Positions 8,294-63,025 of a stretch of DNA of 64,000 bases are shown here, piece after piece. The notes below the pieces were generated by a model. It searched no databases and had not been told where the DNA came from. It was given only the letters and a program-made list of their open reading frames with translations. Within the stretch, counting starts at the first letter, position 1; each line of letters opens with the position of its first letter. Position numbers and translations under genes: made by a program. Where the stretch lies: positions 253,084,001 through 253,148,000 of the forward strand of contig OZ024741.1 of NCBI GenBank assembly GCA_964016885.1. Reading direction: 5' to 3'. Source of the stretch: Eledone cirrhosa. Its lineage: Eukaryota.

Positions 8294-8869
8294 TTATGCT
8301 GGGTCGTGGTTAGTGCGTGGCTCTCCCCCGAATGTTTGTGTAGAAAAAGTGTTCAGCCTGGTGTGTCTGCAATTGACAATTATGTCCGACCTATAGTTTA
8401 TGGCAGATTTTAATTTAATTATTTCCGCCGCCTCAGCCAGGCATAACCTGCAGTGGTTTCTATCACTGGGGAGTTGTGCCACGTGTCTTTTCACTGACCA
8501 GGAGATCTGGGGTTCGATATTCCTGTCCTTGAGGTCCCAGATCAAATCGGCCAGTCTGGTTTGGGATCGTTTTAGCCTATGTTTAAAGGAGTTTCTGTGG
8601 TTATACCAGCGCTCCTTAAACGTAGTGGATGTCGCACCTATATATGAGTACTCCTTATTGCCGGCTTTGACATCACACCGGTAAACAATGTTTTTAACGA
8701 GGCACTCCCCGTTTAGTGGACATTCGGCCCGTTTTTTTGCAGTTGCAGTTGGGTGTAACCGGTGTGGTGGCACGTTGGCGGTTGGTGTCATGCGGTGTGG
8801 GTTGTTGTGTTGTGTTGTGCGTGTGGTTTCGTTCTGCGTTGTGGTGGTGGTTTGTTGTGGAGCAACCAT
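8294..8869 (-). pseudogene. PLE GIY-YIG endonuclease fragment
   Basis: NIVY...YIG, FKERWYNH and CRLC motifs. Confidence 0.8.
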
Positions 8870-9577
8870 GTGTTTTCGTATTTTTGTCCTATTAATGTGT
8901 GCTATTGTGTGGCCTAGATTTGGTGCTGTGGAGAAAGAGAATTTTACAGTGTGTCTATTGAAGAGCTTGTGGTATTTATGTGTGCGTAGAAAAGATTGTT
9001 CGAGAGCCCTGAAGAAGGTTCCCGGTATATTGGTGGCAACGTGTATAGAATACTTCGGTTTCTGCGGTGTTTAGTGAGGTTTTTGTGGTTGGGTGGTAGT
9101 TTGTGTGTGTTTTGGTCAGGCGTATGTGTCATAGGGGTTCCAAGTAATCTACTGGCGTTATATATGTTGTCTCTATTGCTACGCAAACGTGTGCGATAGT
9201 CGGAGTCCTTATTGGGGTTGGAGAGTATGGCTTTATCTCCTTGACAGTTGCGTGTGACGCTGGCTGTCCTGCCGGCTACGGAGGGTCCTAGGTTATTATT
9301 TGTTCTAGGTGTGGAGATTTCTTCTATGTTCGTTTCTAAGGGTCCGGTTATGTTTAGCGGCGTTACGGTTCTATTTGGGTCGATGTAAGAAATCTCCTCA
9401 ATGTAACCAGCGTTTTCAAGTGCGGAGTTGTAGTATTCCGCGTGCTGGTTGAAGATAGTTCTATTTTGCCGACACGGTGGACACTCTATAGGAAATGCTT
9501 TTAACTATTGAGTTAATTATGCTCCTAGGGTGGTTGGAGTGTCTGTTGACGTATTTAAGATTTTCATTAGGTTTGAA

Positions 9578-10323
9578 TTATGGACGGTATAGACCTGTGT
9601 CTAATTCCAGAGTGACATCTAAAAAGTTTACTGTCCTATTGTTAGGTTCAATTTCTACCGCTAATCCTTGGGTCTTAAAGATGTACCTAAGTCTTTTGTG
9701 TAGTCTATCTAATTGGCTATTATTGAGTTCACGGGTCATGAGTAGGGCATCGTCACGGTATAAGCCACCGCTCAAGGAGGGGATCTCGTCTGTTAATATA
9801 TTTAGGAGGTATATGCCTACTATATCTGTAACCTGTGCGGAGTCAGTCGATCCCATGGTGATGTCGAAGCTATCTGGTCTATTCTGTCGTTCCCACAATC
9901 TACCGTCGAATTCTAGTAAAGTTTTCCTAGCTGTTAGCATTATGTCCACTTCCTTTCTAGTGAGGCTTGATCTGTTCATGACTGAGATCAGTGCCTTGTT
10001 AAGGATGATTGGGAATATAGATGTGTAGTAGTTCGTAATGTCCAATTGGACTAATCGAACTAAGTCGACTTAGTTTCAATGGCACGAAACCAGTCGATGA
10101 CCTCCTTTGTACAAGACCATAGCCTGAGTTTAGTTCTATTTCTAAGTTCAGGAATAATTCGGTCAATGATTGATTTGCTAAGTCTACCTAGGTCCGATTT
10201 AGACGGGGCTATGAGCCTGACCGGTAGTTTTGACTGGAAGTCCGGTTTATGGTCTATAATAGATAGTCTCGGTGTCCTAAGGTTGTAGGGATGAGTCCTG
10301 TCGTCAATACTCAGTTCGGTCAT
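9578..10323 (-). pseudogene. PLE reverse transcriptase fragments (frameshifted)
   Basis: DITNYYTSI, MGSTDSAQVTD, YRDD and VNFLDVTL motifs. Confidence 0.85.
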
Positions 10324-11944: not shown

Positions 11945-11979
<35 letters not shown>

Positions 11980-11982
<3 letters not shown>

Positions 11983-12629
11983 TCATCATCATCATCATCA
12001 TCAACGTTTAACGTCCGTGTTCCACGCTTGCATGGGTTTGGACGGGGGTAGTCCCACTTGAGGCAAGAGTGATTGTCTTGCTCGCATAGGACTGTCTGGC
12101 AGGTTTTCTACAGTTGGATGCCCTTCCTAGCACCAACCACATTTACAGTGTGGGTCTGGGAGGTTTTTACCGTGTTGCCTACACGGCCACATTACAGCGT
12201 GGACTGTGTGTTTTTTTGTCGTGACACCTACACGATCTCATTTGTTTCGGCCCGGATGGCGCGGCACCAACATAACTTTACATAGGACGGGGTGGTGTGG
12301 ATGGGGTGGGGGTGGTGGTGGTGGGACGGGGTGTATTTTGTTAGAGATGCCTACTGGCAAGGCGGGTCTTCTCTGTTACTGAGTACCGCCAAAGGTCTCG
12401 GTCCAGTGGCATTGTCTTGGAGAGGTGTAAGTGTGTGAGGTCGGAGTTTATCAGCTCGTCCCAGGTTTTTCTAGGTCTGCCTATTCCGTGGCTACCGTCT
12501 ATCTTTATTGCCCTGCACTTTGTTATACAGCTATCGACTTTCATGCGCATCACGTGTCCATACCAACGTAGCCTTCTCTCGAGTAAACAACATCTGATCC
12601 CTCTTATCTCTAATTTTTTCCTTAGTTCG

Positions 12630-12630
<1 letters not shown>
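11980..12630 (-). mobile_element. RTE LINE, 5'-truncated copy
   Basis: Near-identical to the 3' end of the element at 33209 onward (RLRWYGHVMRM..GRPRKTW). (GAT)n tail, (TA)n flanks. Confidence 0.92.
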
Positions 12631-12668
<38 letters not shown>

Positions 12669-15669: not shown

Positions 15670-16605
15670 TCAGAATCCGTAGAAGAGCTAGAGAATAAAT
15701 TCTGGCTATGGAAACAGCAGTTGGAAGCAAGAGGACTGAGAGTGAACATAGCTAAGACAAAAATGTTGATAAGTAGAAAAGAGGACAAAACTCTGCTTCC
15801 ATCAGGGAAATGGCCATGTTCGATATGCAGAAAAGGAACTGGCATAAATTCTATAAAATGTACACAATGCAGATCTTGGGTACACAAGAGATGTAGTGGG
15901 ATAGCAGGCAAACTAACAGGTAGGGAAAACTATGTATGCAGTAGATGTACAGGGAAATTTGACAGTAGAATTCACAGTGATAGACACATTTTTCAAATGC
16001 AGGTGGGTTTATAGAAGTGGTTGATAGCTTCCGGTACCTTGGTGATTAGATTAGCATGGGAGGGGGGGGGTGTTCCGAGGCCATAGTATCTAGAATAAGG
16101 ATGGGTTGGAAGAAGTTTAGGGAGCTTCTTCCTCTGTTGACAAAGAAGGATATCTCCCTGCATACGAAAGGCCGGTTATATGGTGCCTGTGTGAGATGCG
16201 TGATGCTGCATGGTAGTAAGACATGGGCAGCAACTGCAGAAGATATGCAACGACTGGAGAGAAATGAAGTAAGCATGATCCATTGGATGTGCAATGTCAA
16301 TGTGCGTGAACAACCAAGCATGGATGAGTTGAGAGAGAAGCTGTGTATAAGAGGGATAAGTTGTGGTGTGCGGGAGAGAAGACTGCAATGGTATGGACAT
16401 GTGATGTGCATGGAGGATGATCGCAGGGTAAAGAAGTGCCAAGAAATCCCATTAGAAGGAAGACACAATAGAGGAAGACCACGAAAAACATGGGCAGAAG
16501 TGGTGAGAGCAGACCTCAGATCGCTGAAACTCACAGAGGAGATGACCTGTTCCACCCTTGCAAGCAGGGAAAAGCGGACGTAAAATGATGATGATGATGA
16601 TGATG
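15670..16605 (+). mobile_element. RTE LINE fragment (second subfamily)
   Basis: ORFs 15721-16014 (WPCSICRKG..CTQCRSWVHKRC..CSRC) and 16056-16583. Ends GCGGACGTAAAA(TGA)n. Confidence 0.9.
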
Positions 16606-33175: not shown

Positions 33176-33209
<34 letters not shown>

Positions 33210-33599
33210 CATCATCATCATCATCATCAGCGTTTAACGTCCGTGTTCCACGCTTGCATGGGTTTGGACGGGGGTAGTCCCACTTGAGGCAAGAGTGATT
33301 GTCTTGCTCGCATAGGACTGTCTGGCAGGTTTTCTACAGTTGGATGCCCTTCCTAACACCAACCACATTTACAGTGTGGGTCTGGGAGGTTTTTACCGTG
33401 TTGCCTACACGGCCACATTACAGCGTGGACTGTGTGTTTTTTTGTCGTGACACCTACACGATCTCATTTGTTTCGGCCTCGATGGCGCGGCACCAACATA
33501 ACTTTACATAGAACGGGGTGGTGTGGATCGGGTGGGGGTGGTGGGACGGGGTGTATTTGTTAGAGATGCCTACTGGCTGGAGTAGGTTTTACTATATAT

Positions 33600-36500
33600 T
33601 TAGGTAAGGCGGGTCTTCTCTGTTACTGAGTACCGCCAAAGGTCTCGGTCCAGTGACATTGTCTTGGAGAGGTGTAAGTGTGTGATGTCGGAGTTTATCA
33701 GCTCGTCCCAGGTTTTTCTAGGTCTGCCTATTCCGTGACTACCGTCTATCTTTATTGCCCTGCACTTTGTTATACAGCTATCGACTTTCATGCGCATCAC
33801 GTGTCCATACCAACGTAGCCTTCTCTCGAGTAAACAACATCTGATCCCTCTTATCTCTAATTTATTCCTTAGTTCGTTTATGCTTTGCCGTTCACGTATA
33901 TTACTGTTACACATCCAGCGGAGCATGCAAGCTTCGTTCCTCTCTAGTCTGCGTATATCCTCTGCACACAATGCCCAGGTCTCACTGCCATGCAGCATTG
34001 CTGTTCGTATGCAGGCATCGTACAACCTGCCTTTCATTTTTAGTGAGAACCCTTTAGCAGCTAATAGTGGTATAAGCTCTCTGAACTTTTTCCAACCAGT
34101 TCTGACTCTAGCTACAGTACTTTCAGAGCACCCTCCCCCACTGCTGATTTTATCGCCCAGGTAACGGAAGCTGTCCACTATTTCTATAGAACCCTCTGCG
34201 CAATTGAAAGAGCTAGTAGTTTGTGGGCACTTGCTGCTACTTATTGCACCAGAGCACCGGCCACATGTAAAATCTATGTTCTTAGTTAGCCTACCTGTGA
34301 TCCCACTACATCTTTTATGCACCCATACTTTGCATTTAGGACATAAAATGGAGTTTCTACCTACGCCTTTCCTACACACCGAGCACGACCATTTCCCAGA
34401 AGGGACCGCCGCCTTGTTTTCTTTCCTACAAACTAGTACTTTGGTCTTAGCCAGGTTAATTTTAAGTCCTTTTGACTCTAGGCCGTGCTTCCATGTTTGG
34501 AATTTCTTCTCTAGCTCGGCCATTGATTCCGCTATGAGTGTCAGGTCGTCTGCGTATAGGAGTTCCCATGGGCAGCCTGTCTTGAACTCCTCTGTTATGG
34601 CCTGAAGGGCAATAATAAATAGTAGTGGACTGAGAACAGAGCCCTGATGGACGCCGACTTTTACGCTAAACTCTTCACTATATTCGTTGTTAATTCTAAC
34701 CTTGCTGACTGTTTCTTTATACATGGCTTGTATAGCCCTCACAAGCCATTCGTCAACGCCTAGTTTTCTAAGAGCCCACCAGATAATGGAGCGGGGGACT
34801 CTGTCGAAGGCTTTCTCCAAGTCGACAAAAGCTAAGTAGAGGGGTTTACCTTTAGCTAGGTACTTCTCTTGTAGTTGTCGTACTATGAAAAGAGCGTCTG
34901 TGGTACTTTTGCCTGACACAAACCCGAACTGCATTTCATCTAGGTCAATTCTCTCTCTGATTAGCTGCGCTATTACTCTTTCCGTGACCTTCATGACCTG
35001 GTCGATTAATTTAATGCCTCTATAGTTACTCCTATCTAGGGCGTCTCCTTTACCCTTATAACAGTTAACGATGATGCTGCTATGCCAGTCCTTCGGAACA
35101 ACCCCGTTTTGTACGACTTGGTTAACTATGCGGGTGACCATGGTGTGTCCCACCGTGCCAGATGCCTTCAGCATCTCAGCAACTATTTCCGAAGGCCCAG
35201 CCGCCTTACCAGTCTTCATATCCTTGATTGCCTTACTTATTATACTCCCCTCGACTAACACTGCTGGTCCCTCTATTGGGTCGATATGGGGGAGACTGCC
35301 TTTCTCCCAATTATTCTCCTCATTTAGAAGCCTTTCATAGTGACACTTCCAAGCTACCTTCTTATCAGCGTCGGTGATGGCAAGTGTGCCATCGTCGTTT
35401 AGTACACACTTCTCCCCGACAATATCACGGTTTTCCTTGACGCATTGCCTAGCAATCCTGAACACCTCACGTTTTTGGTCATCGCGTTGTAGAACATGCT
35501 TGAACTTTCTTTCCTCAGCTTCCCTTCTTGCTAAGTACACTTGTCTCCTAGCTTCCCTCCTGGCCACTTGATAGTCCTCTCTACTTCCCCCATCCCGCCA
35601 TACTTTCCAAGCCTGCTTTTTGGCCTTAATTGACCCCTCCACCTTACTGTTCCACCACCATGTTACTCTCCTCCTGCCTACAGGCCTGCTCCAGCCACAG
35701 ACCTCGTCTGTCGCCAACAGCAGGTTTGCTTTCAGAAATTCCCACTCTCCCTCTATATTGTCCGACTCTAAATGTTCTTCCTTACTGTCGAAAGCATCAA
35801 GTAATATGCTTTGAAATTTATTCCTGGCTGTGGGGTCCTTTAACTTCCATATTTTCCTCCTGAGGATAGTCCTCTTCTGTTGTCGAGTACGTCTCGTCCT
35901 GACTATGAGGTCGCTAATTATCAGTCTATGTTGGGAGGTGCATTCTTCATGGGGGAGGGATTTAGTGTTAACAACAGACACTCTGTCACGTCTTCTGGTA
36001 AGGATATAATCTACCTGGCTTGTGTGTTCCCCGGATCTATAGGTGATCAGGTGATTGTCACGTTTTTTGAAGTTAGTGTTACAGATAGTTAGGTTATTTG
36101 CATCACAGAATTCCAGGATTCTGGAGCCTTCCTCATTTCTAGTACCAAACCCATAGCCTCCATGGATTTCGTCGTAGCCGTCACAATGTTGTCCAACGTG
36201 ACCATTTAGGTCGCCTGCGATAATTATATAGTCACTGTCGGATATTTGGGAGGTAGTTAGCATCAGTGTCTCATAGAATCTGTCTTTTATAGTGCCGGGC
36301 AGTCCGGATTGGGGTGCGTACGCAGATATTACTGTCACCGTAGTTCTATTGAGGACAAGTCGTATTTTAATTATTCTGTCGTTCACTCTATTTACGTCTA
36401 TTATCTTATCTGCCCACTTTTCTGCTACCATGATTCCTACTCCACCCAGCCCATCGTCGTTTCCCACCCAGAAAAGCTTATAACAACGTTTTTTACCCTC

Positions 36501-36830
36501 AATGAACCTAGCAGACCCACCCCTCCACCTGGTCTCTTGAATACAACAAACATCGACCTCCTTACGTTCAAGCATTTCTACAACCTCGTTAGCGCGACCC
36601 TTTAGGGTGCCTACATTTATGGTACCAACTCTGAAGTTTTGGATTGCGTTTGGGGGTTGGGGGCGGTGAGGGGCGGGGGGCGATGGTGTTATGTTAGCCG
36701 TCCGCGGTCGAAACAATGAGGAGTGCTCGCATTCTCGTCCAAGGGGTGAATTTGTCTTTATCTTTGGCATTGTCGCTGAGCGTCCAGATTTTTCTCTCTC
36801 ACCTCCACTCTCCAGGATTCCGCAGTCCAT
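33600..36830 (-). CDS. RTE LINE protein: APE endonuclease, reverse transcriptase and a PHD-type Zn finger
   Basis: EN motifs TINVGTL, CIQETRW, AYAPQ, GDLNGH and SQHRL. RT motifs FVDLEKAFD, GVHQGSVLSP and LLYADD. C-terminal RLRWYGHV..GRPRKTW. First in-frame ATG at 36830; the frame is open to 36962. Confidence 0.95.
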   Translation of the reverse strand: MDCGILESGGEREKSGRSATMPKIKTNSPLGRECEHSSLFRPRTANITPSPPAPHRPQPPNAIQNFRVGTINVGTLKGRANEVVEMLERKEVDVCCIQETRWRGGSARFIEGKKRCYKLFWVGNDDGLGGVGIMVAEKWADKIIDVNRVNDRIIKIRLVLNRTTVTVISAYAPQSGLPGTIKDRFYETLMLTTSQISDSDYIIIAGDLNGHVGQHCDGYDEIHGGYGFGTRNEEGSRILEFCDANNLTICNTNFKKRDNHLITYRSGEHTSQVDYILTRRRDRVSVVNTKSLPHEECTSQHRLIISDLIVRTRRTRQQKRTILRRKIWKLKDPTARNKFQSILLDAFDSKEEHLESDNIEGEWEFLKANLLLATDEVCGWSRPVGRRRVTWWWNSKVEGSIKAKKQAWKVWRDGGSREDYQVARREARRQVYLARREAEERKFKHVLQRDDQKREVFRIARQCVKENRDIVGEKCVLNDDGTLAITDADKKVAWKCHYERLLNEENNWEKGSLPHIDPIEGPAVLVEGSIISKAIKDMKTGKAAGPSEIVAEMLKASGTVGHTMVTRIVNQVVQNGVVPKDWHSSIIVNCYKGKGDALDRSNYRGIKLIDQVMKVTERVIAQLIRERIDLDEMQFGFVSGKSTTDALFIVRQLQEKYLAKGKPLYLAFVDLEKAFDRVPRSIIWWALRKLGVDEWLVRAIQAMYKETVSKVRINNEYSEEFSVKVGVHQGSVLSPLLFIIALQAITEEFKTGCPWELLYADDLTLIAESMAELEKKFQTWKHGLESKGLKINLAKTKVLVCRKENKAAVPSGKWSCSVCRKGVGRNSILCPKCKVWVHKRCSGITGRLTKNIDFTCGRCSGAISSSKCPQTTSSFNCAEGSIEIVDSFRYLGDKISSGGGCSESTVARVRTGWKKFRELIPLLAAKGFSLKMKGRLYDACIRTAMLHGSETWALCAEDIRRLERNEACMLRWMCNSNIRERQSINELRNKLEIRGIRCCLLERRLRWYGHVMRMKVDSCITKCRAIKIDGSHGIGRPRKTWDELINSDITHLHLSKTMSLDRDLWRYSVTEKTRLT

Positions 36831-36998
36831 CCATCCATCATATATCGTATATCGAAAGGCAACCAGGCAAGCGATAGTATAGGCCTCTGGTTTCTGATTG
36901 GTCCGCGTAATAATACTGGTGATACGTGGGGGCTGTTTTATGATTGGTCCACGTAATAGCAATGGTGGTGTGTGGGGGTGGGAGGGAGGGGTGTTGGG

Positions 36999-39900
36999 TA
37001 GCTAGCAAGAAGGTAATGATTGAGATGGGTTTATGCATTTAACAAGCGATTAACAAAAATACAAAATTTGTTCAGTTAAATACGTCCAAAAACCTAAACG
37101 TATTTAGCACTTAATAGGAACAGAAAATGTAGTTTGTTTTAGCGATAGAATGGCTATTTGGACTTGAAATACGAAATGAGAGAGAGAGAGGAGAGAGAGA
37201 TGAAGTCTGTACCTTACGTTTACATGATTTTCGTTCGGACAGCAGGCAAAGAAATGAAATTTGGCGAAGTGAATTCCTATCATATATTTATAGGGAGAGA
37301 GAGAGAGAGAGAGAGAGAGTGCGAGGGTAGGGGGCCACATGATGGCTGTGGGTGTTAGGCGTTTGACCGCCCCGTGCCTTCGAAGAAGGAAGAAGGAAAG
37401 GATTTTGCTTTTTTTGGGGTTTGAAAATACGTTAGGAATTAAGGTTTGAAAATAGCTAGCAAGAAGGTAATGATTGAGATGGGTTTATGCATTTAACAAG
37501 CGATTAACAAAAATACAAAATTTGTTCAGTTAAATACGTCCAAAAACCTAAACGTATTTAGCACTTAATAGGAACAGAAAATGTAGTTTGTTTTAGCGAT
37601 AGAATGGCTATTTGGACTTGAAATACGAAATGAGAGAGAGAGAGGAGAGAGAGATGAAGTCTGTACCTTACGTTTACATGATTTTCGTTCGGACAGCAGG
37701 CAAAGAAATGAAATTTGGCGAAGTGAATTCCTATCATATATTTATAGGGAGAGAGAGAGAGAGAGAGAGAGAGTGCGAGGGTAGGGGGCCACATGATGGC
37801 TGTGGGTGTTAGGCGTTTGACCGCCCCGTGCCTTCGAAGAAGGAAGAAGGAAAGGATTTTGCTTTTTTTGGGGTTTGAAAATACGTTAGGAATTAAGGTT
37901 TGAAAATAGCTAGCAAGAAGGTAATGATTGAGATGGGTTTATGCATTTAACAAGCGATTAACAAAAATACAAAATTTGTTCAGTTAAATACGTCCAAAAA
38001 CCTAAACGTATTTAGCACTTAATAGGAACAGAAAATGTAGTTTGTTTTAGCGATAGAATGGCTATTTGGACTTGAAATACGAAATGAGAGAGAGAGAGGA
38101 GAGAGAGATGAAGTCTGTACCTTACGTTTACATGATTTTCGTTCGGACAGCAGGCAAAGAAATGAAATTTGGCGAAGTGAATTCCTATCATATATTTATA
38201 GGGAGAGAGAGAGAGAGAGAGAGAGAGTGCGAGGGTAGGGGGCCACATGATGGCTGTGGGTGTTAGGCGTTTGACCGCCCCGTGCCTTCGAAGAAGGAAG
38301 AAGGAAAGGATTTTGCTTTTTTTGGGGTTTGAAAATACGTTAGGAATTAAGGTTTGAAAATAGCTAGCAAGAAGGTAATGATTGAGATGGGTTTATGCAT
38401 TTAACAAGCGATTAACAAAAATACAAAATTTGTTCAGTTAAATACGTCCAAAAACCTAAACGTATTTAGCACTTAATAGGAACAGAAAATGTAGTTTGTT
38501 TTAGCGATAGAATGGCTATTTGGACTTGAAATACGAAATGAGAGAGAGAGAGGAGAGAGAGATGAAGTCTGTACCTTACGTTTACATGATTTTCGTTCGG
38601 ACAGCAGGCAAAGAAATGAAATTTGGCGAAGTGAATTCCTATCATATATTTATAGGGAGAGAGAGAGAGAGAGAGAGAGAGTGCGAGGGTAGGGGGCCAC
38701 ATGATGGCTGTGGGTGTTAGGCGTTTGACCGCCCCGTGCCTTCGAAGAAGGAAGAAGGAAAGGATTTTGCTTTTTTTGGGGTTTGAAAATACGTTAGGAA
38801 TTAAGGTTTGAAAATAGCTAGCAAGAAGGTAATGATTGAGATGGGTTTATGCATTTAACAAGCGATTAACAAAAATACAAAATTTGTTCAGTTAAATACG
38901 TCCAAAAACCTAAACGTATTTAGCACTTAATAGGAACAGAAAATGTAGTTTGTTTTAGCGATAGAATGGCTATTTGGACTTGAAATACGAAATGAGAGAG
39001 AGAGAGGAGAGAGAGATGAAGTCTGTACCTTACGTTTACATGATTTTCGTTCGGACAGCAGGCAAAGAAATGAAATTTGGCGAAGTGAATTCCTATCATA
39101 TATTTATAGGGAGAGAGAGAGAGAGAGAGAGAGAGTGCGAGGGTAGGGGGCCACATGATGGCTGTGGGTGTTAGGCGTTTGACCGCCCCGTGCCTTCGAA
39201 GAAGGAAGAAGGAAAGGATTTTGCTTTTTTTGGGGTTTGAAAATACGTTAGGAATTAAGGTTTGAAAATAGCTAGCAAGAAGGTAATGATTGAGATGGGT
39301 TTATGCATTTAACAAGCGATTAACAAAAATACAAAATTTGTTCAGTTAAATACGTCCAAAAACCTAAACGTATTTAGCACTTAATAGGAACAGAAAATGT
39401 AGTTTGTTTTAGCGATAGAATGGCTATTTGGACTTGAAATACGAAATGAGAGAGAGAGAGGAGAGAGAGATGAAGTCTGTACCTTACGTTTACATGATTT
39501 TCGTTCGGACAGCAGGCAAAGAAATGAAATTTGGCGAAGTGAATTCCTATCATATATTTATAGGGAGAGAGAGAGAGAGAGAGAGAGAGTGCGAGGGTAG
39601 GGGGCCACATGATGGCTGTGGGTGTTAGGCGTTTGACCGCCCCGTGCCTTCGAAGAAGGAAGAAGGAAAGGATTTTGCTTTTTTTGGGGTTTGAAAATAC
39701 GTTAGGAATTAAGGTTTGAAAATAGCTAGCAAGAAGGTAATGATTGAGATGGGTTTATGCATTTAACAAGCGATTAACAAAAATACAAAATTTGTTCAGT
39801 TAAATACGTCCAAAAACCTAAACGTATTTAGCACTTAATAGGAACAGAAAATGTAGTTTGTTTTAGCGATAGAATGGCTATTTGGACTTGAAATACGAAA

Positions 39901-40201
39901 TGAGAGAGAGAGAGGAGAGAGAGATGAAGTCTGTACCTTACGTTTACATGATTTTCGTTCGGACAGCAGGCAAAGAAATGAAATTTGGCGAAGTGAATTC
40001 CTATCATATATTTATAGGGAGAGAGAGAGAGAGAGAGAGAGAGTGCGAGGGTAGGGGGCCACATGATGGCTGTGGGTGTTAGGCGTTTGACCGCCCCGTG
40101 CCTTCGAAGAAGGAAGAAGGAAAGGATTTTGCTTTTTTTGGGGTTTGAAAATACGTTAGGAATTAAGGTTTGAAAATAGCTAGCAAGAAGGTAATGATTG
40201 A
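36999..40201. repeat. Tandem array: 7 x 454 bp plus a ~25-bp partial unit at the LINE 5' end
   Basis: TAGCTAGCAAGAAGG recurs at 36999, 37453 ... 40177. Identical small ORFs occur every 454 bp. Confidence 0.97.
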
Positions 40202-40248
40202 TATATATATATATATATATATGTTTGTGTGTGTGTGTACTTCTACAG

Positions 40249-45604: not shown

Positions 45605-47480
45605 AATAAGATAACAAGGATGATTGTTACTCCTTCATTATGTTTATTGGTTGGTGACTCGCGTTTCGCCACTGATCAGCTCAAGGTTCAATCTGTATCG
45701 ATCTGACCAGACTCTATAATCTGCAGCTCATCAGACCCCTTGTAATGTTAATAGAAAAAGGAATACATGCTGTATGATAAAGTCAGAAGTTCCTATGGTG
45801 GTCATTAAAGTTTGTTTTGATTGGTGGATTAATTCATAGGGATGTTTTTGCCTGTAGTGTATGTATGGGTGGGTGTGGTGATAAGTTGGTGGTGATGGTC
45901 GCAGGTTGAAGCGGGTGGTAGGGTGGGCGTGCTGGTTGTCGGTAAACAGGTTTGGCATGTAGATGTGGCTGATTTTTGTGTGTGGTGTGGGTGTGGTGTT
46001 GTTGTTTGTGATAAAAATGAAAGGTTGCAGAGTTAAAAGTGTTTCCTGCAGAGTGTCCACCCTGTCGGAAATAAGAACTATCTTCAACCAGCATGCGGAA
46101 TACTATAACTCCACACTTGAAAAGGTTGGTTACAATGAGAAGATAACTTACAATGACCCAACCCTTAGAATCGCATATAGACAAGGACACCACACCTAGA
46201 ACAAATACTAACCAAAGACCACCCTTAGCCGGAAGGACAGGCAGCGTTACACACAACTGCCAAGGAGATAAAGCTATACTCTCCAACCCCAGTAAGGACT
46301 CTGAATATCGCACACTTAGTAATAGAGACCCGAGACTTAACACCAATAGAATACCAGGAACCCCATGACAAATACGCCTAACCAAAACACACCCACACAA
46401 CCTCTAAACCACAACAACCACACTAACACCGTAAAGCCCAAAGCAGACCCATGACATGGTACAATGCCCCGTACTCTATACACGTTGCCACCAATATACC
46501 AGGAATCTTCTTCAGAGCTCTTGACCAATCCTTCCCACCCACACATAAATACCACAAGCTCTTTAATAGGCACACAGTAAAATTCTCCTTCTCCACAGCA
46601 CCAAATCTAGGCGACACGATAGCACACACTAATAGGACAAAAATACGCAAACACATGGTAGCTCCACAACAAATCACTAGCACAACCCAGAAAGAAACCA
46701 CACACACAACACAACTCAACAACCCACATGCCAGCTCCACACAGAATACAAACAACCGACAACGTAACAACAAACCCATAACCCCCAACTGCAACTGCAA
46801 AAAGCGGGTAGAATGCCCACTAAACGGAGAGTGCCTCATTAAAAACATTATTTACTGGTGCGATGTCACAGCTAGCCGAAAAGAGTACTCCTACATAGAG
46901 GCAACCTCGACTATGTTTAAGGAGCGCTGGTATAACCACAAAAGCTCCTTTAAACAGAGGCCCAAATGATCCTAAACAAGACTGGCAGAATTGATCTGGG
47001 ACCTCAAAGACAAGAACATCGAATACCAGATCAAATGGTCAGTTAAAAGACGCGTGGCCCAACTCCCCAGCGACAAAAACCACTGCAGGTTATGCCTAGC
47101 TGAGGCGGCTGAGATCATTAAATTGAAATCAGCCATAAACTCAAGATCTGACATAATTATAAACTGTAGACACACCAGGATGACCACCTTCTCTGCATAA
47201 ACATTTGGCTAAGGGCCACCCACTAACCCTGACTCAACATAGGGATAACCACCTTTGCCTTGCCACACCATCCCTCATCCCAGTACATTTGTCTTCTATA
47301 ACATGTAACCCATTGTAAGATCAGATTTTGTAAATATCATGGTGCACCCATCACCCCCACCACCACCGCCACCAACAGACACATCGCCATACATCCCTCA
47401 TCTCAGTACCATTGTGTTCTACCTGTCCTCTTTGTCAGGTTTTAACTTGTAACCCATCGTAACATCCGATCCTGTAAATA
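45605..47480. mobile_element. Hydra-like PLE copy with an inverted structure
   Basis: 45605-46040 is the 3' end on the minus strand (homologous to ~6197-6690). 46041-47480 is the thumb, EN and UTR on the plus strand (CNCKKRVECPLNGEC, NIIY..YSYI, CRLCLAEA). Confidence 0.88.
45653..45737 (-). ncRNA. Type I hammerhead ribozyme at the PLE 3' end
   Basis: Minus strand: GGT CTGATGA GCTGC ... GTGGC GAAAC GCGA GTC ACC. Confidence 0.8.
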
Positions 47481-53171: not shown

Positions 53172-54003
53172 TGGCAGACTGTATGATGCCTGCATACGAA
53201 CAACTATGTTACATGGCAGTGAGACATGGGCATTGTGTGCAGAGGATCTGCGCAGACTAGAAAGGAATGAAGCATGCATTCTCCGCTGAATGTGTAATAG
53301 AAATATACGTGAACAGCAAAGTATAAATGAACTAAGTGAGAAATTAGGTATAAGAGGGATCAGATGCTGTTTACTTGGGAGAAGACTATGTTGGTATGGT
53401 CACGTGATGCGCATGAAAGACGACAGCTGTATAAAAAAGTGCAGGGCGATCAAAATTGACGGAATATACAGAGTAGGCAGACCGAGAAAAGCCTGGGACG
53501 ATTTGATAAATTCCGACCTCACACACTTACACCTCTCCAAGACAATGTCACTGGACCGAGATCTTTGGCGTTATGCAGTAATACAGAAGACCCACCTTGC
53601 CTAAGTACAAAGCGAAACCTACAGTCAGTATGCACCTCTTAATCAAATATACATCCCCATCCCACTACCCCAACTCCCCCACCCCCACCCCAATCAACAC
53701 CAGCCCTTTCTCTGTAAAGTTATGTTGGTACCACAACATCCAGTCCGAAATAAATGAGGTCGTGTAGGTGTCACGACAAAAAAACACACAGTCCACGCTA
53801 TAATGTGGCCGTGTAGGTAACACGGTAAAAACCTCCCAGTCCACACTGTAAACGTGGTTGGTGTTAGGAAGGGCATCCAGCCGTAGAAAACCTGCCAGAC
53901 AGTCCCATACAAGTGAGACGACCAATCTTGCCTCAAGTGGGACAATTCCTGTCTAAACCCATGCTAGCGTGGAAGATAGACATTAAACGATGATGATGAT
54001 GAT
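53172..54003 (+). mobile_element. RTE LINE, 5'-truncated copy
   Basis: ORF 53290-53604 is homologous to the RTE C-terminus; 3' UTR and (GAT)n tail present. Confidence 0.9.
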
Positions 54004-54298
54004 ATATATATATATATATATATATATAGGTGTGTGAGTGTGAGCACTTTAAACCTGGTGAAACCTATCTCCCTATGATTGAACAAATCCTGAGCAACGC
54101 ATATATATATGTACAGTGGCAGACTGGGTCTAAAAATATTGGTTGCCAGGAGATAAAGGGGGCCCACCCACATATAGAATGCTATCATTTAATTTTTATA
54201 ATGAATAAATAACATTTTCATAAAGTACACAAATGAAAGCAAAGCTGCAATCAAATTTTTGTGGGAAAAAAAATGTGTATTTTTGACAAATTATAGTG

Positions 54299-54940: not shown

Positions 54941-55973
54941 ATATGTACATATTACTGGCAGTATACAGTAATACTAAATGTTAATACAGAATGTTATAAT
55001 TGGATTTTTAAATAATTGTGAATGTATAGTATACTGTTATTTAGAGTAGAGTGTGCATGTGATCATTCTTACCTTCTCCAATAAAAATATAATGTACCTT
55101 GTGAAATATACATATCCAGTGACTTTCAATAATGACCTTTGGTCTTTCACATTCACTCAATATATATCTGGGAGTGTGTGTGTGTACATGTACATGTGTA
55201 TAATAGATTTATATATATGTATACATACATGTTTTCAACTTGCTCAAACATTATTTGGCAACTCATTTTCCCTAGGAACTTTAGACTGAAGAACTGACCA
55301 CTAATTGATTTTACGTATGTCTTTAACTCATTGATATCAAAAGTTAATTGGCCAGCACGCCCTAGCCCCTACCACAGCACTACCACTCTTTTCCGTCTGG
55401 CTGAGCTTGTTATCACCCTCAATGGCTTTTCCTTTTTGGGTGAATTCTATCAGCAGGTCTCTGGGGTAGCGATGGGAACCAGAATGGGTCCAAACTATGC
55501 CAACTTGTTTGTTGGCTACGTCGAAGCCCACATCTTCTCCCAGTATGCTGGACCAACTCCTGAGCTATACGGTCATTATATTGACAACTGTATCAGCGCC
55601 ACCTCTCTATCACGAGAACAGCTCGACTGTTTTCTTTCTTTTGTCCAATCTTTCCATCCTGCTCTCAATTTCACCGCCTCCGTCTCAGATTCTTCTGTCG
55701 CTTTTCTAGATATCTCTCTATCTATTAATCACTCTCACCACACCCTCTCTACTTCCATCTACATTAAACCAACAGACTCTCAATCTTACCTCGACTTCAC
55801 CTCCTCCCATCCAACCCACACCAAAAACTCCATACCCTATTCCCAATTCCTCCATCTTCGTTGACTCTGTAGCCAGGACGACGATTTCGAAATCCATTCC
55901 CTTTGCATGGCTTCCTGCTTCATCCAGCGTGGATATCCCCCAACCCTGATCCAAGCTGCTCTCACCCGCACCC

Positions 55974-56639
55974 ATGAAACAGACCACACCACAGCCCTCA
56001 CTTCACCTCCACCCTCCCAACACCTGTGTTCCTTTCCCTCTCACCTACCACCCCATCACTCTACCACTCCAGCGACATATCCTCCGTTCCTTCCGTATCC
56101 TCTCTTCTGACCCCATCACTTCTCGCTTTTTTCCAAACCCACCCATTACTGCTTTTAAGTGCGCCCGCAACCTCCACGACCTCCTGGTTCGCAGTTCCTT
56201 TTCGTCCTCTCCCATGACTTCACCTGACTCTCATCCTTGTTCTCATTCCCGTTGCAACACTTGTCCCTTCATTTCCACCCTCAACACTCTTACAGGCCCT
56301 AACGGCTCTTTCCGTATCTGCCATTCCTTCACCTGCACATCCACCCATGTTGTCTATGCCCTCCGGTGTTCCCTTTGCGGGTCTTTATATATCGGACAAA
56401 CGGGACGCCGTATGGCAGACCATTTTGCTGAGCATTTGAGGGACATACGACTTGGTTTGGATACTCCTGTCGCCTGTTATTTCTGTTCTCCTGATCATTC
56501 TTCCCTACATGTTTCAGTCCTGGGTGTCCTTTTACATCATGGATCACAGGTCTCGCGCACCAGGACTGAACAAAGTCTGATTCACTGCCTTGGGTCCTAT
56601 TCCCCTCTTGGACGCAACTCACCTCCCCAATTTATTTAA
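55974..56639 (+). pseudogene. PLE GIY-YIG endonuclease region
   Basis: HVVY/YIG and CxxC motifs. Separated from the RT by a stop and a frameshift. Confidence 0.8.
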
Positions 56640-61960: not shown

Positions 61961-61996
<36 letters not shown>

Positions 61997-61999
<3 letters not shown>

Positions 62000-62984
62000 T
62001 CATCATCATCATCATCGTTTAACGTCCATGTTCCATGCTTGCATGGGTTTGGACAGGAGTTTTCCCACTTGAGGCAAGAGTGGTTGTCATTGCTCGTATA
62101 GGACTGTCTGGCGGGTTTTCTACAGCTGGATGCCCTTCCTAACACCAACCACATTTACAGTGTGGGGCTGGGAGGTTTTTACCGTGTTGCCTACACGGCC
62201 ACATTACAGCGTGGACTGTGTGTTTTTTTGTCGTGACACCTACACGATCTCATTTGTTTCGGCCTGGATGTTGTGGCACCAACATAACTTTACATTGAAA
62301 GAGGCGGTGTGGATGCCTACTGACTGTAGTAGGTTTTACTTTTTATTTAGGTAAGGTGGGTCTTCTCTATTACTGAGTACCGCCAAAGGTCTCGGTCCAG
62401 TGACATTGTCTTGGAGAGGTGTAAGTGTGTGAGGTCGGAATTTATCAGCTCGTCCCAGGTTTTTCTGGGTCTGCCTACTCCGTGGCTACCGTCTATCTTT
62501 ATTGCCCTGCACTTTGTTATACAGCTATCGACTTTCATGCGCATCACGTGTCCATACCAACGTAGCCTTCTCTCGAGTAAACAACATCTGATCCCTCTTA
62601 TTTCTAATTTTTTCCTTAGTTCGTTTATGCTTTACCGTTCACGTATATTACTATTACACATCCAGCGGAGCATGCAAGCTTCGTTCCTCTCTAGTCTGCA
62701 TATATCCTCTGCACACAATGCACAGGTCTCACTGCCATGCAACATTGCTGTTCGTATGCAGACATCATACAACCTGCCTTTCATTTTTATGGAGAACCCT
62801 TTAGCGGCTAATAGTGGTATAAGCTCTCTGAACTTTTTCCATCCAGTTCTGACTCTAGCTACTGTACTTTCAGAGCACCCTCCCCCACTGCTGATTTTGT
62901 CACCCAGGTAACGGAAGCTGTCCACTATTTCTATAGAACCCTCTGCACAATTGAAAGAGCTAGTATTTTGTGGGCACTTGCTGC

Positions 62985-62985
<1 letters not shown>
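61997..62985 (-). mobile_element. RTE LINE, 5'-truncated copy
   Basis: Near-identical to 33209-34237; (TA)n on both sides. Confidence 0.92.

Positions 62986-63025
<40 letters not shown>

Follow-up and report, generated by a model that had tools for sequence, protein, structure and literature searches.

The question raised by this locus is how a LINE comes to carry a 5' end made of identical tandem units, and whether those units belong to the element at all. The window (the whole stretch of 64,000 nucleotides that was analysed, positions 253084001-253148000 of C2 in the 3.0-Gb genome of Eledone cirrhosa) contains an array with exact 454-bp periodicity from 36999 to 40201, a length of 3203 bp that comprises seven units and a further 25 bp, without a mismatch in the assembly sequence. 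The internal (GA)n tracts are likewise identical across all seven units. The host LINE of the array lies on the minus strand (stop-to-stop frame 33600-37001), and the array passes into its leader at 36998, on the ORF side. An earlier note on this DNA had described seven identical monomers, bounded by (TA)n with a partial unit of about 25 bp on one side and by the ORF leader on the other, and this description holds in each of its parts. The 25-bp partial unit is best read as an ordinary 5' truncation. The parts of the element, as read from the sequence, are the following:

33176..33209, no strand assigned: (TA)n target, 3' side
33210..33229, minus strand: (GAT)n tail; nearly all family copies end alike
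33231..33599, minus strand: 3' UTR, containing a third G-quadruplex motif at 33530-33551 (plus strand)
33600..36830, minus strand: intact single ORF from the first in-frame Met, with APE endonuclease, reverse transcriptase and a PHD finger after the reverse transcriptase domain
36887..36978, minus strand: leader with two 46-bp repeats, each with one presumed CCAAT box; kept in older subfamilies
36999..40201, minus strand: 5' monomer array of seven 454-bp units, ORF side first, from 36999-37452 to 39723-40176
40177-40201, minus strand: truncated distal unit of 25 bp, abutting (TA)n at 40202
40202..40222, no strand assigned: (TA)n target, 5' side

The element combines one ORF with an APE endonuclease and reverse transcriptase and a tandem-repeat 3' tail in place of poly(A); both are RTE traits, and we take its anatomy to be of the RTE type. 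The traits of the L1 clade (ORF1 plus ORF2, A-rich tail) are absent from the window LINE. The PHD finger corresponds to residues 827-870 of the 1087-aa ORF query, C-terminal to the reverse transcriptase. Atlas clusters matching the ORF comprise endonuclease and reverse transcriptase, some with the PHD finger, and one has an identical EN-RT-PHD make-up. A 22-bp (AT)n duplication is compatible with the flanks of the window copy, its low complexity making it uninformative; in the family, target-site duplications are mostly (TA)n-type matches and a few are complex (e.g., L044, L046, L092). The window also holds 5'-truncated relatives of the LINE with 66-93% identity (11974-12631, 53173-54016, 61987-62986, 15685-16494), and broken frames with reverse transcriptase and nuclease-like parts (449-1294, 8294-10069, 46427-46969, 55298-56639), which by eye we take to be Penelope-like.

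Whether the 454-bp unit belongs to the LINE was addressed by its distribution. A 30-base word across the junction of array and leader has 158 exact occurrences genome-wide. At the 100 listed places among these junctions, 39 copies carry no full unit, 32 carry one, 11 carry two to four, six carry five to nine and 12 carry ten or more. The longest arrays reach 48 and at least 55 units (24-26 kb), and both still end on a LINE. The monomer-start word occurs exactly 782 times genome-wide; among 12 loci chosen by monomer alone (six other loci from the top monomer matches and six chromosome-C1 loci without an exact junction), all 12 carry the LINE body and body-less 454-mer arrays were not found. The 454-mer is thus the LINE's own 5' monomer and not the independent satellite that had been considered as an alternative. 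The monomer count in other copies, which the earlier note had called for, ranges from 0 to at least 55 units across the family, and the possible birth of a satellite that it envisaged is supported by the two longest arrays. Across 3.8 kb, 115 aligned bodies show 0-45 substitutions relative to the window copy, so the family is very young. Head-to-tail junctions are also found in older subfamilies with units 60-80% identical, one of them with 6.4 units of 635 bp, and a second LINE family (endonuclease 66-72% identical) has its own tandem 5' units of 370-660 bp (L211, L238-L267), which precede a C-rich/CCAAT leader resembling that of the first family.

The array structure itself is no assembly product, as copy-specific variant arrays, joints in raw reads and contigs of two other organisms demonstrate. 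Among raw reads of another study (run X20), the head-to-tail joint is present in four reads as a step back of 454 and in six as a step back of 444, and it also lies within contigs of organisms B and C; it was not seen in runs X7-X9, which covered the sequence only partly. The number of units at the window locus might still be an assembly expansion of a shorter array, a suspicion raised by seven perfectly identical units and by N gaps at some loci. Given the ordered variant patterns of other arrays, the raw-read joints and a read depth in run X1 at which the monomer is covered about twice as deeply as the adjacent leader, this is considered highly improbable.

Arrays differ from one another far more than units differ within them. 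Among 27 arrays with at least three units, the within-array distance was smaller than the distance to the copy with the nearest body in 26 (mean 1.1 versus 5.0 substitutions), sibling arrays in this comparison not being independent. A private substitution is fixed in every unit of 12 of the 27 arrays, the window copy included; the body of the window copy has 0 substitutions relative to three other copies, yet its array has a private fixed substitution. The last 10 bp before unit position 1 (for example, window 37024-37033) are hypervariable between arrays and uniform within them, even among near-identical bodies. Private fixed changes and uniform units on near-identical bodies indicate that arrays bottleneck to one or a few units and then re-expand in very few transposition cycles; on this sequence evidence, arrays are re-amplified from few units. 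A dating of arrays against bodies gave 46 substitutions where 99 were expected, a comparison that is uninformative since private body changes include unsampled ancestry.

The ORF-side half is more uniform than the distal half in 15 of 22 arrays (four reverse, three ties; Wilcoxon p=0.003). The expectation that distal units are more ancestral, in the sense of lying nearer to the units of other copies, failed (five for, 11 against, five ties). The terminal unit matches the majority type in no more than 13 of 23 arrays (framing artefacts account for three of the misses), and L067 and L109 have amplified a unit that differs by 26 bp from the terminal one.

Part of this pattern fits an explanation in which the array grows and becomes homogeneous through slippage and unequal sister exchange in master copies, while the C-rich tract at its ORF side is an essential promoter element and the edge is fixed by selection. 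Unequal exchange has been proposed, in the passages on monomers, for mouse promoters of 50 monomers (PMC6454616). Long arrays show higher-order patterns (L059 with a period of 8, also L145 and L139), and the terminal unit is a singleton in 10/23 arrays compared with 49/340 inner units, as expected at array edges, although this excess is partly a framing artefact. Against it stands the absence of any rise in array length with age (rho -0.02, 115 copies). Nor does it predict that bodies only 0-2 substitutions from their relatives carry 7-31 units with private changes fixed in the array, or that new non-homologous duplications end in a 13-nt window in individual copies, as described below. As the main cause of the arrays, unequal exchange is regarded as unlikely.

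These duplications end at the point where the array meets the leader, where one of two further G-quadruplex motifs is located:

36974..36998, plus strand: canonical G-quadruplex motif, carried by the template (cDNA) strand and directly adjoining (0 nt) the array at its ORF side
36652..36680, plus strand: second G-quadruplex motif, at the ORF start, by sequence pattern

The edge motif has a G4Hunter-type score of 2.56 and is predicted to fold in the ViennaRNA gquad model; its sense strand is C-rich and, as we take it, CACCC-like. Polymerases stop just before the 3' G-tract of G-quadruplex structures, and the stop predicted on this basis is the position of the array end (36998/36999). Both folding and stalling at the edge motif are predictions. 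At six loci, a new duplication whose period differs from that of the monomer ends between -7 and +5 nt from the motif:

L155, 93 bp
L132, 27 bp
L164, 38 bp
L221, 27 bp
L159, 20 bp
L162, 1547 bp

The lists that yielded L162, L164 and L221 were enriched for altered junctions. For the 119-locus set, the count is three edge duplications against about five new insertions of at least 15 bp elsewhere in 391 units. In L155, a new 547-bp unit occupies most of a 31-unit array, and this unit is missing from C3, whose body has 0 substitutions relative to that of L155. In L162 (1218-5866), the 1547-bp unit is present three times, combines 1.5 monomers with native host flank of about 800 bp, and ends 6-7 nt before the motif. 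The host flank is natively continuous with the sequence upstream of L162, and because it was re-copied together with monomers, the unit was copied in place on a DNA template. Older subfamilies have other upstream landing sites and an unchanged right edge (L174 at +5, L192 at -4, L216 at 0 with 6.4 × 635 bp).

With a probability of roughly one half, this very young LINE family has in the array a 5' end of variable length that regrows by stalling and slippage at the predicted edge G-quadruplex, renewing a predicted stack of promoters. The polymerase making the sense strand would stall where the predicted G-quadruplex borders the array on its ORF side, slip back by one or more units and copy them again. 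The stall would take place either while the second strand of a new insertion is being made and the cDNA is single-stranded, or in later replication, two timings which the data cannot separate. Long arrays would then be transcribed, copied through into daughters and cut at near-random points, and block slips together with unequal exchange would generate the higher-order patterns and the 25-kb satellites; unequal exchange would by itself give the higher-order, multi-unit steps of long arrays as well. Regrowth would renew the predicted promoter stack that 5' truncation removes. This reading is supported by the family-wide linkage of monomer and LINE, the copy-specific uniform arrays, the fixed ORF-side edge at the motif and the new duplications ending there.

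Several observations count against stalling and slippage at the edge. In the second family, the usual array end lies 34 nt before its quadruplex, a junction at the motif is seen in L266 alone, and of 30 loci most do not satisfy the strict motif. In the first family, L063 (13 units) and L080 (20 units) have no strict motif, yet carry long arrays with private fixed changes. No duplications ending at the second G-quadruplex motif were found among 115 bodies. The terminal units of L067 and L109, the failed distal-ancestry test, the insertions away from the edge and the lack of an excess of 5' ends at TATA+30 (below) also belong on this side, as do deletions ending at the edge in L161 and L150, since a sense-strand stall does not explain deletions. 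In a stronger form, the promoter-edge G-quadruplex would be a built-in amplifier: it would make second-strand synthesis stutter and re-copy upstream sequence, whereby the promoter would be regenerated, host flank captured as monomers and satellites of tens of kilobases seeded. We offer this only tentatively, and think it rather doubtful.

The edge deletions fit a different process, in which the reverse transcriptase leaves its template at that point. The array would then be built on RNA during first-strand synthesis, by back-jumps between staggered units or by rolling on multimeric or circular monomer RNA, and its uniform, copy-specific units and a length independent of age would follow equally. 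Template switching has been proposed for mouse L1, in the passages that treat monomer gain (10.1101/2022.08.06.500894). In a search for a circularising ribozyme, the 454-bp monomer gave only an antisense HDV-like match (E=6), and a descriptor search was empty; this match was rejected, as its P3 helix is not kept in variants. Older monomer variants yielded no ribozyme, and the predicted fold of the monomer RNA is weak (z -1.89). Moreover, jumps at the RNA 5' end would add units distally, yet it is the ORF-side half that is more uniform, and the host flank in L162 is left unexplained. Rolling copying at insertion, which the earlier note had suggested, does not as a purely RNA-level account explain the L162 flank, and the monomer showed no circularising ribozyme. 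Construction on RNA is accordingly given a low probability.

Also in favour of an RNA-level process is a separate, body-less tandem family with a 457-bp unit, inserted at (TA)n targets and often part-inverted (L183:812-2894, G000:C1:407757010-407759093; L194-L205), for which 202 matches were obtained from 1591 candidates. By pattern match its units have a type I hammerhead-like core, with no Rfam hit and with a minimum-energy fold that does not contain a three-way junction. One such array is joined head-to-head with a truncated window-type LINE, the 3' flank lacking any such sequence; the junction is a hint that the reverse transcriptase of the LINE may mobilise the 457-bp family. Rolling-type retroposition may thus take place in this genome. 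A 2026 preprint assigns animal retrozymes to Penelope-like elements in the passages that concern them.

RNA is probably the form in which long arrays are inherited. Locus C7a has 15 units and then about 10 more in inverted orientation; the breakpoints fall at unit positions 371/373, and the variant types continue across the inversion. We take this arrangement to be the twin-priming pattern, which would mean that the RNA template was about 25 units long. The sequences thus suggest that long arrays are probably copied from RNA.

Each unit contains motifs which we take to be TATA-like, initiator-like and GC-box-like, given here for the ORF-proximal unit:

37285..37292, minus strand: TATA-like box, recurring every 454 bp
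37258-37264, minus strand: initiator-like word, 30 nt downstream of the TATA-like box
37367..37373, minus strand: GC-box-like word in the sequence, one per unit
37395..37415, minus strand: A-run/pyrimidine stretch with modest clustering of the 5' ends of copies; candidate start or reverse transcriptase pause site

The block downstream of the TATA-like box is kept across monomer variants, and each unit is predicted to be a Pol II promoter, such that daughters with at least one unit would stay active. The mapped 5' ends (91/112 copies) are spread over the whole unit with one cluster, nine ends in a 10-nt window (scan p=0.017), and show no significant excess at the TATA-predicted start, TATA+30 (3 versus 1.8 expected). 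A start site at TATA+30 had been entertained on a first count of five to six ends, which fell to those three after re-mapping. Two other candidates were dropped. A peak of 5' ends at unit position ~205 arose artefactually from alignment of the (TA)n flank with the TATA run, and at unit position 1, where an LTR-like 25-nt 'R' had been considered, 5' ends are not concentrated.

The scattered 5' ends, the two conserved CCAAT boxes of the leader and the fact that older variants have a (TA)n run in place of the TATA-like word would also suit units that are passengers. The working promoter would then be the CACCC/CCAAT leader or host read-through, and the array a by-product of amplification. Inheritance of arrays as at C7a requires RNA to start inside or above the array, and the architecture is kept across subfamilies with units 60-80% identical, in the second family and in other organisms; the passenger reading is considered improbable. 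Of the self-renewing promoter array proposed in the earlier note, self-renewal is borne out by re-amplified, copy-specific arrays, and the promoter part is predicted from motifs only.

The layout, judged from sequence, is like that seen in the L1 monomer promoter of mice and rats, and the element is neither an L1 nor a retrozyme. Mouse L1Md A, Gf and Tf and rat L1 have, in the passages describing them, a monomeric 5' UTR followed by a tether (PMC6454616; PMC5381506; 10.1101/2022.08.06.500894). By the same descriptions, they share with the Eledone family variable tandem 5' monomers on an autonomous LINE, a unique leader to the ORF and truncation that removes units, with arrays of up to ~50 units compared with at least 55 here. 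The passages on monomer regain in mouse L1 state that its mechanism is unclear, and propose second-strand mispairing, template switching and unequal crossing-over (PMC6454616; 10.1101/2022.08.06.500894). Unlike these elements, the Eledone LINE is a single-ORF, non-L1 element with a (GAT)n tail and (TA)n targets. Its units are AT-rich and 450-635 bp in length, with a TATA-like box, an edge flush with a quadruplex motif and a predicted promoter role, and the family has no strong common truncation site. The new element here is an array end flush with a template-strand G-quadruplex motif and new duplications ending there.

The A-module of Dictyostelium TRE5-A reportedly varies in tandem copy number. 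It is described as a promoter-active 5' module of ~200 bp in a non-LTR element, which has two ORFs in contrast to the single ORF of the Eledone LINE (PMC3159450, relevant passages). Non-LTR retrozymes also form dispersed uniform tandem arrays with units of a few hundred bp through retroposition; as described in the passages on their structure, they are body-less with a hammerhead in each unit (PMC7229834; 10.64898/2026.07.22.740005), whereas the 454-bp monomer has no hammerhead and is always on a LINE body (12/12 loci). RTE-2_OV of Octopus vulgaris, as far as the main text describes it, is likewise an RTE-type LINE with one intact ORF, ~1100 aa in length, and a microsatellite at its 3' end; its ~600-nt UTRs and C2H2 finger set it apart from the Eledone LINE by description only, and the word 'tandem' is absent from that main text (PMC9115989). 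Thirteen recent RTE families are listed in a repeat annotation of 2026, which mentions no such arrays in the passages found. Full-text searches of the literature, as distinct from Repbase or Dfam entries and supplements, gave no description of this monomer-bearing LINE family. The monomer design is extended outside L1, with satellites seen forming on intact LINEs. Models of monomer regain become directly testable in this family, whose very young copies number in the hundreds, carry ordered variants and share a fixed edge with a concrete, mutable candidate cause.

Three further tandem structures were observed around copies of these elements. In L100, L175 and L084, which belong to an older subfamily, a short unit of 167 bp, derived by a microhomology deletion, alternates with full units. 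Upstream of L185 lies a minisatellite that has a 46-bp unit, at least 104 copies and no relation to the monomer; it adjoins the copy's 5' end with no (TA)n spacer between them. In L093, about 1.1-4.1 kb upstream of the LINE body, there is a 310-bp tandem array of about 9-10 near-identical units containing hammerhead-like core words (by eye), with (TA)n between array and body.
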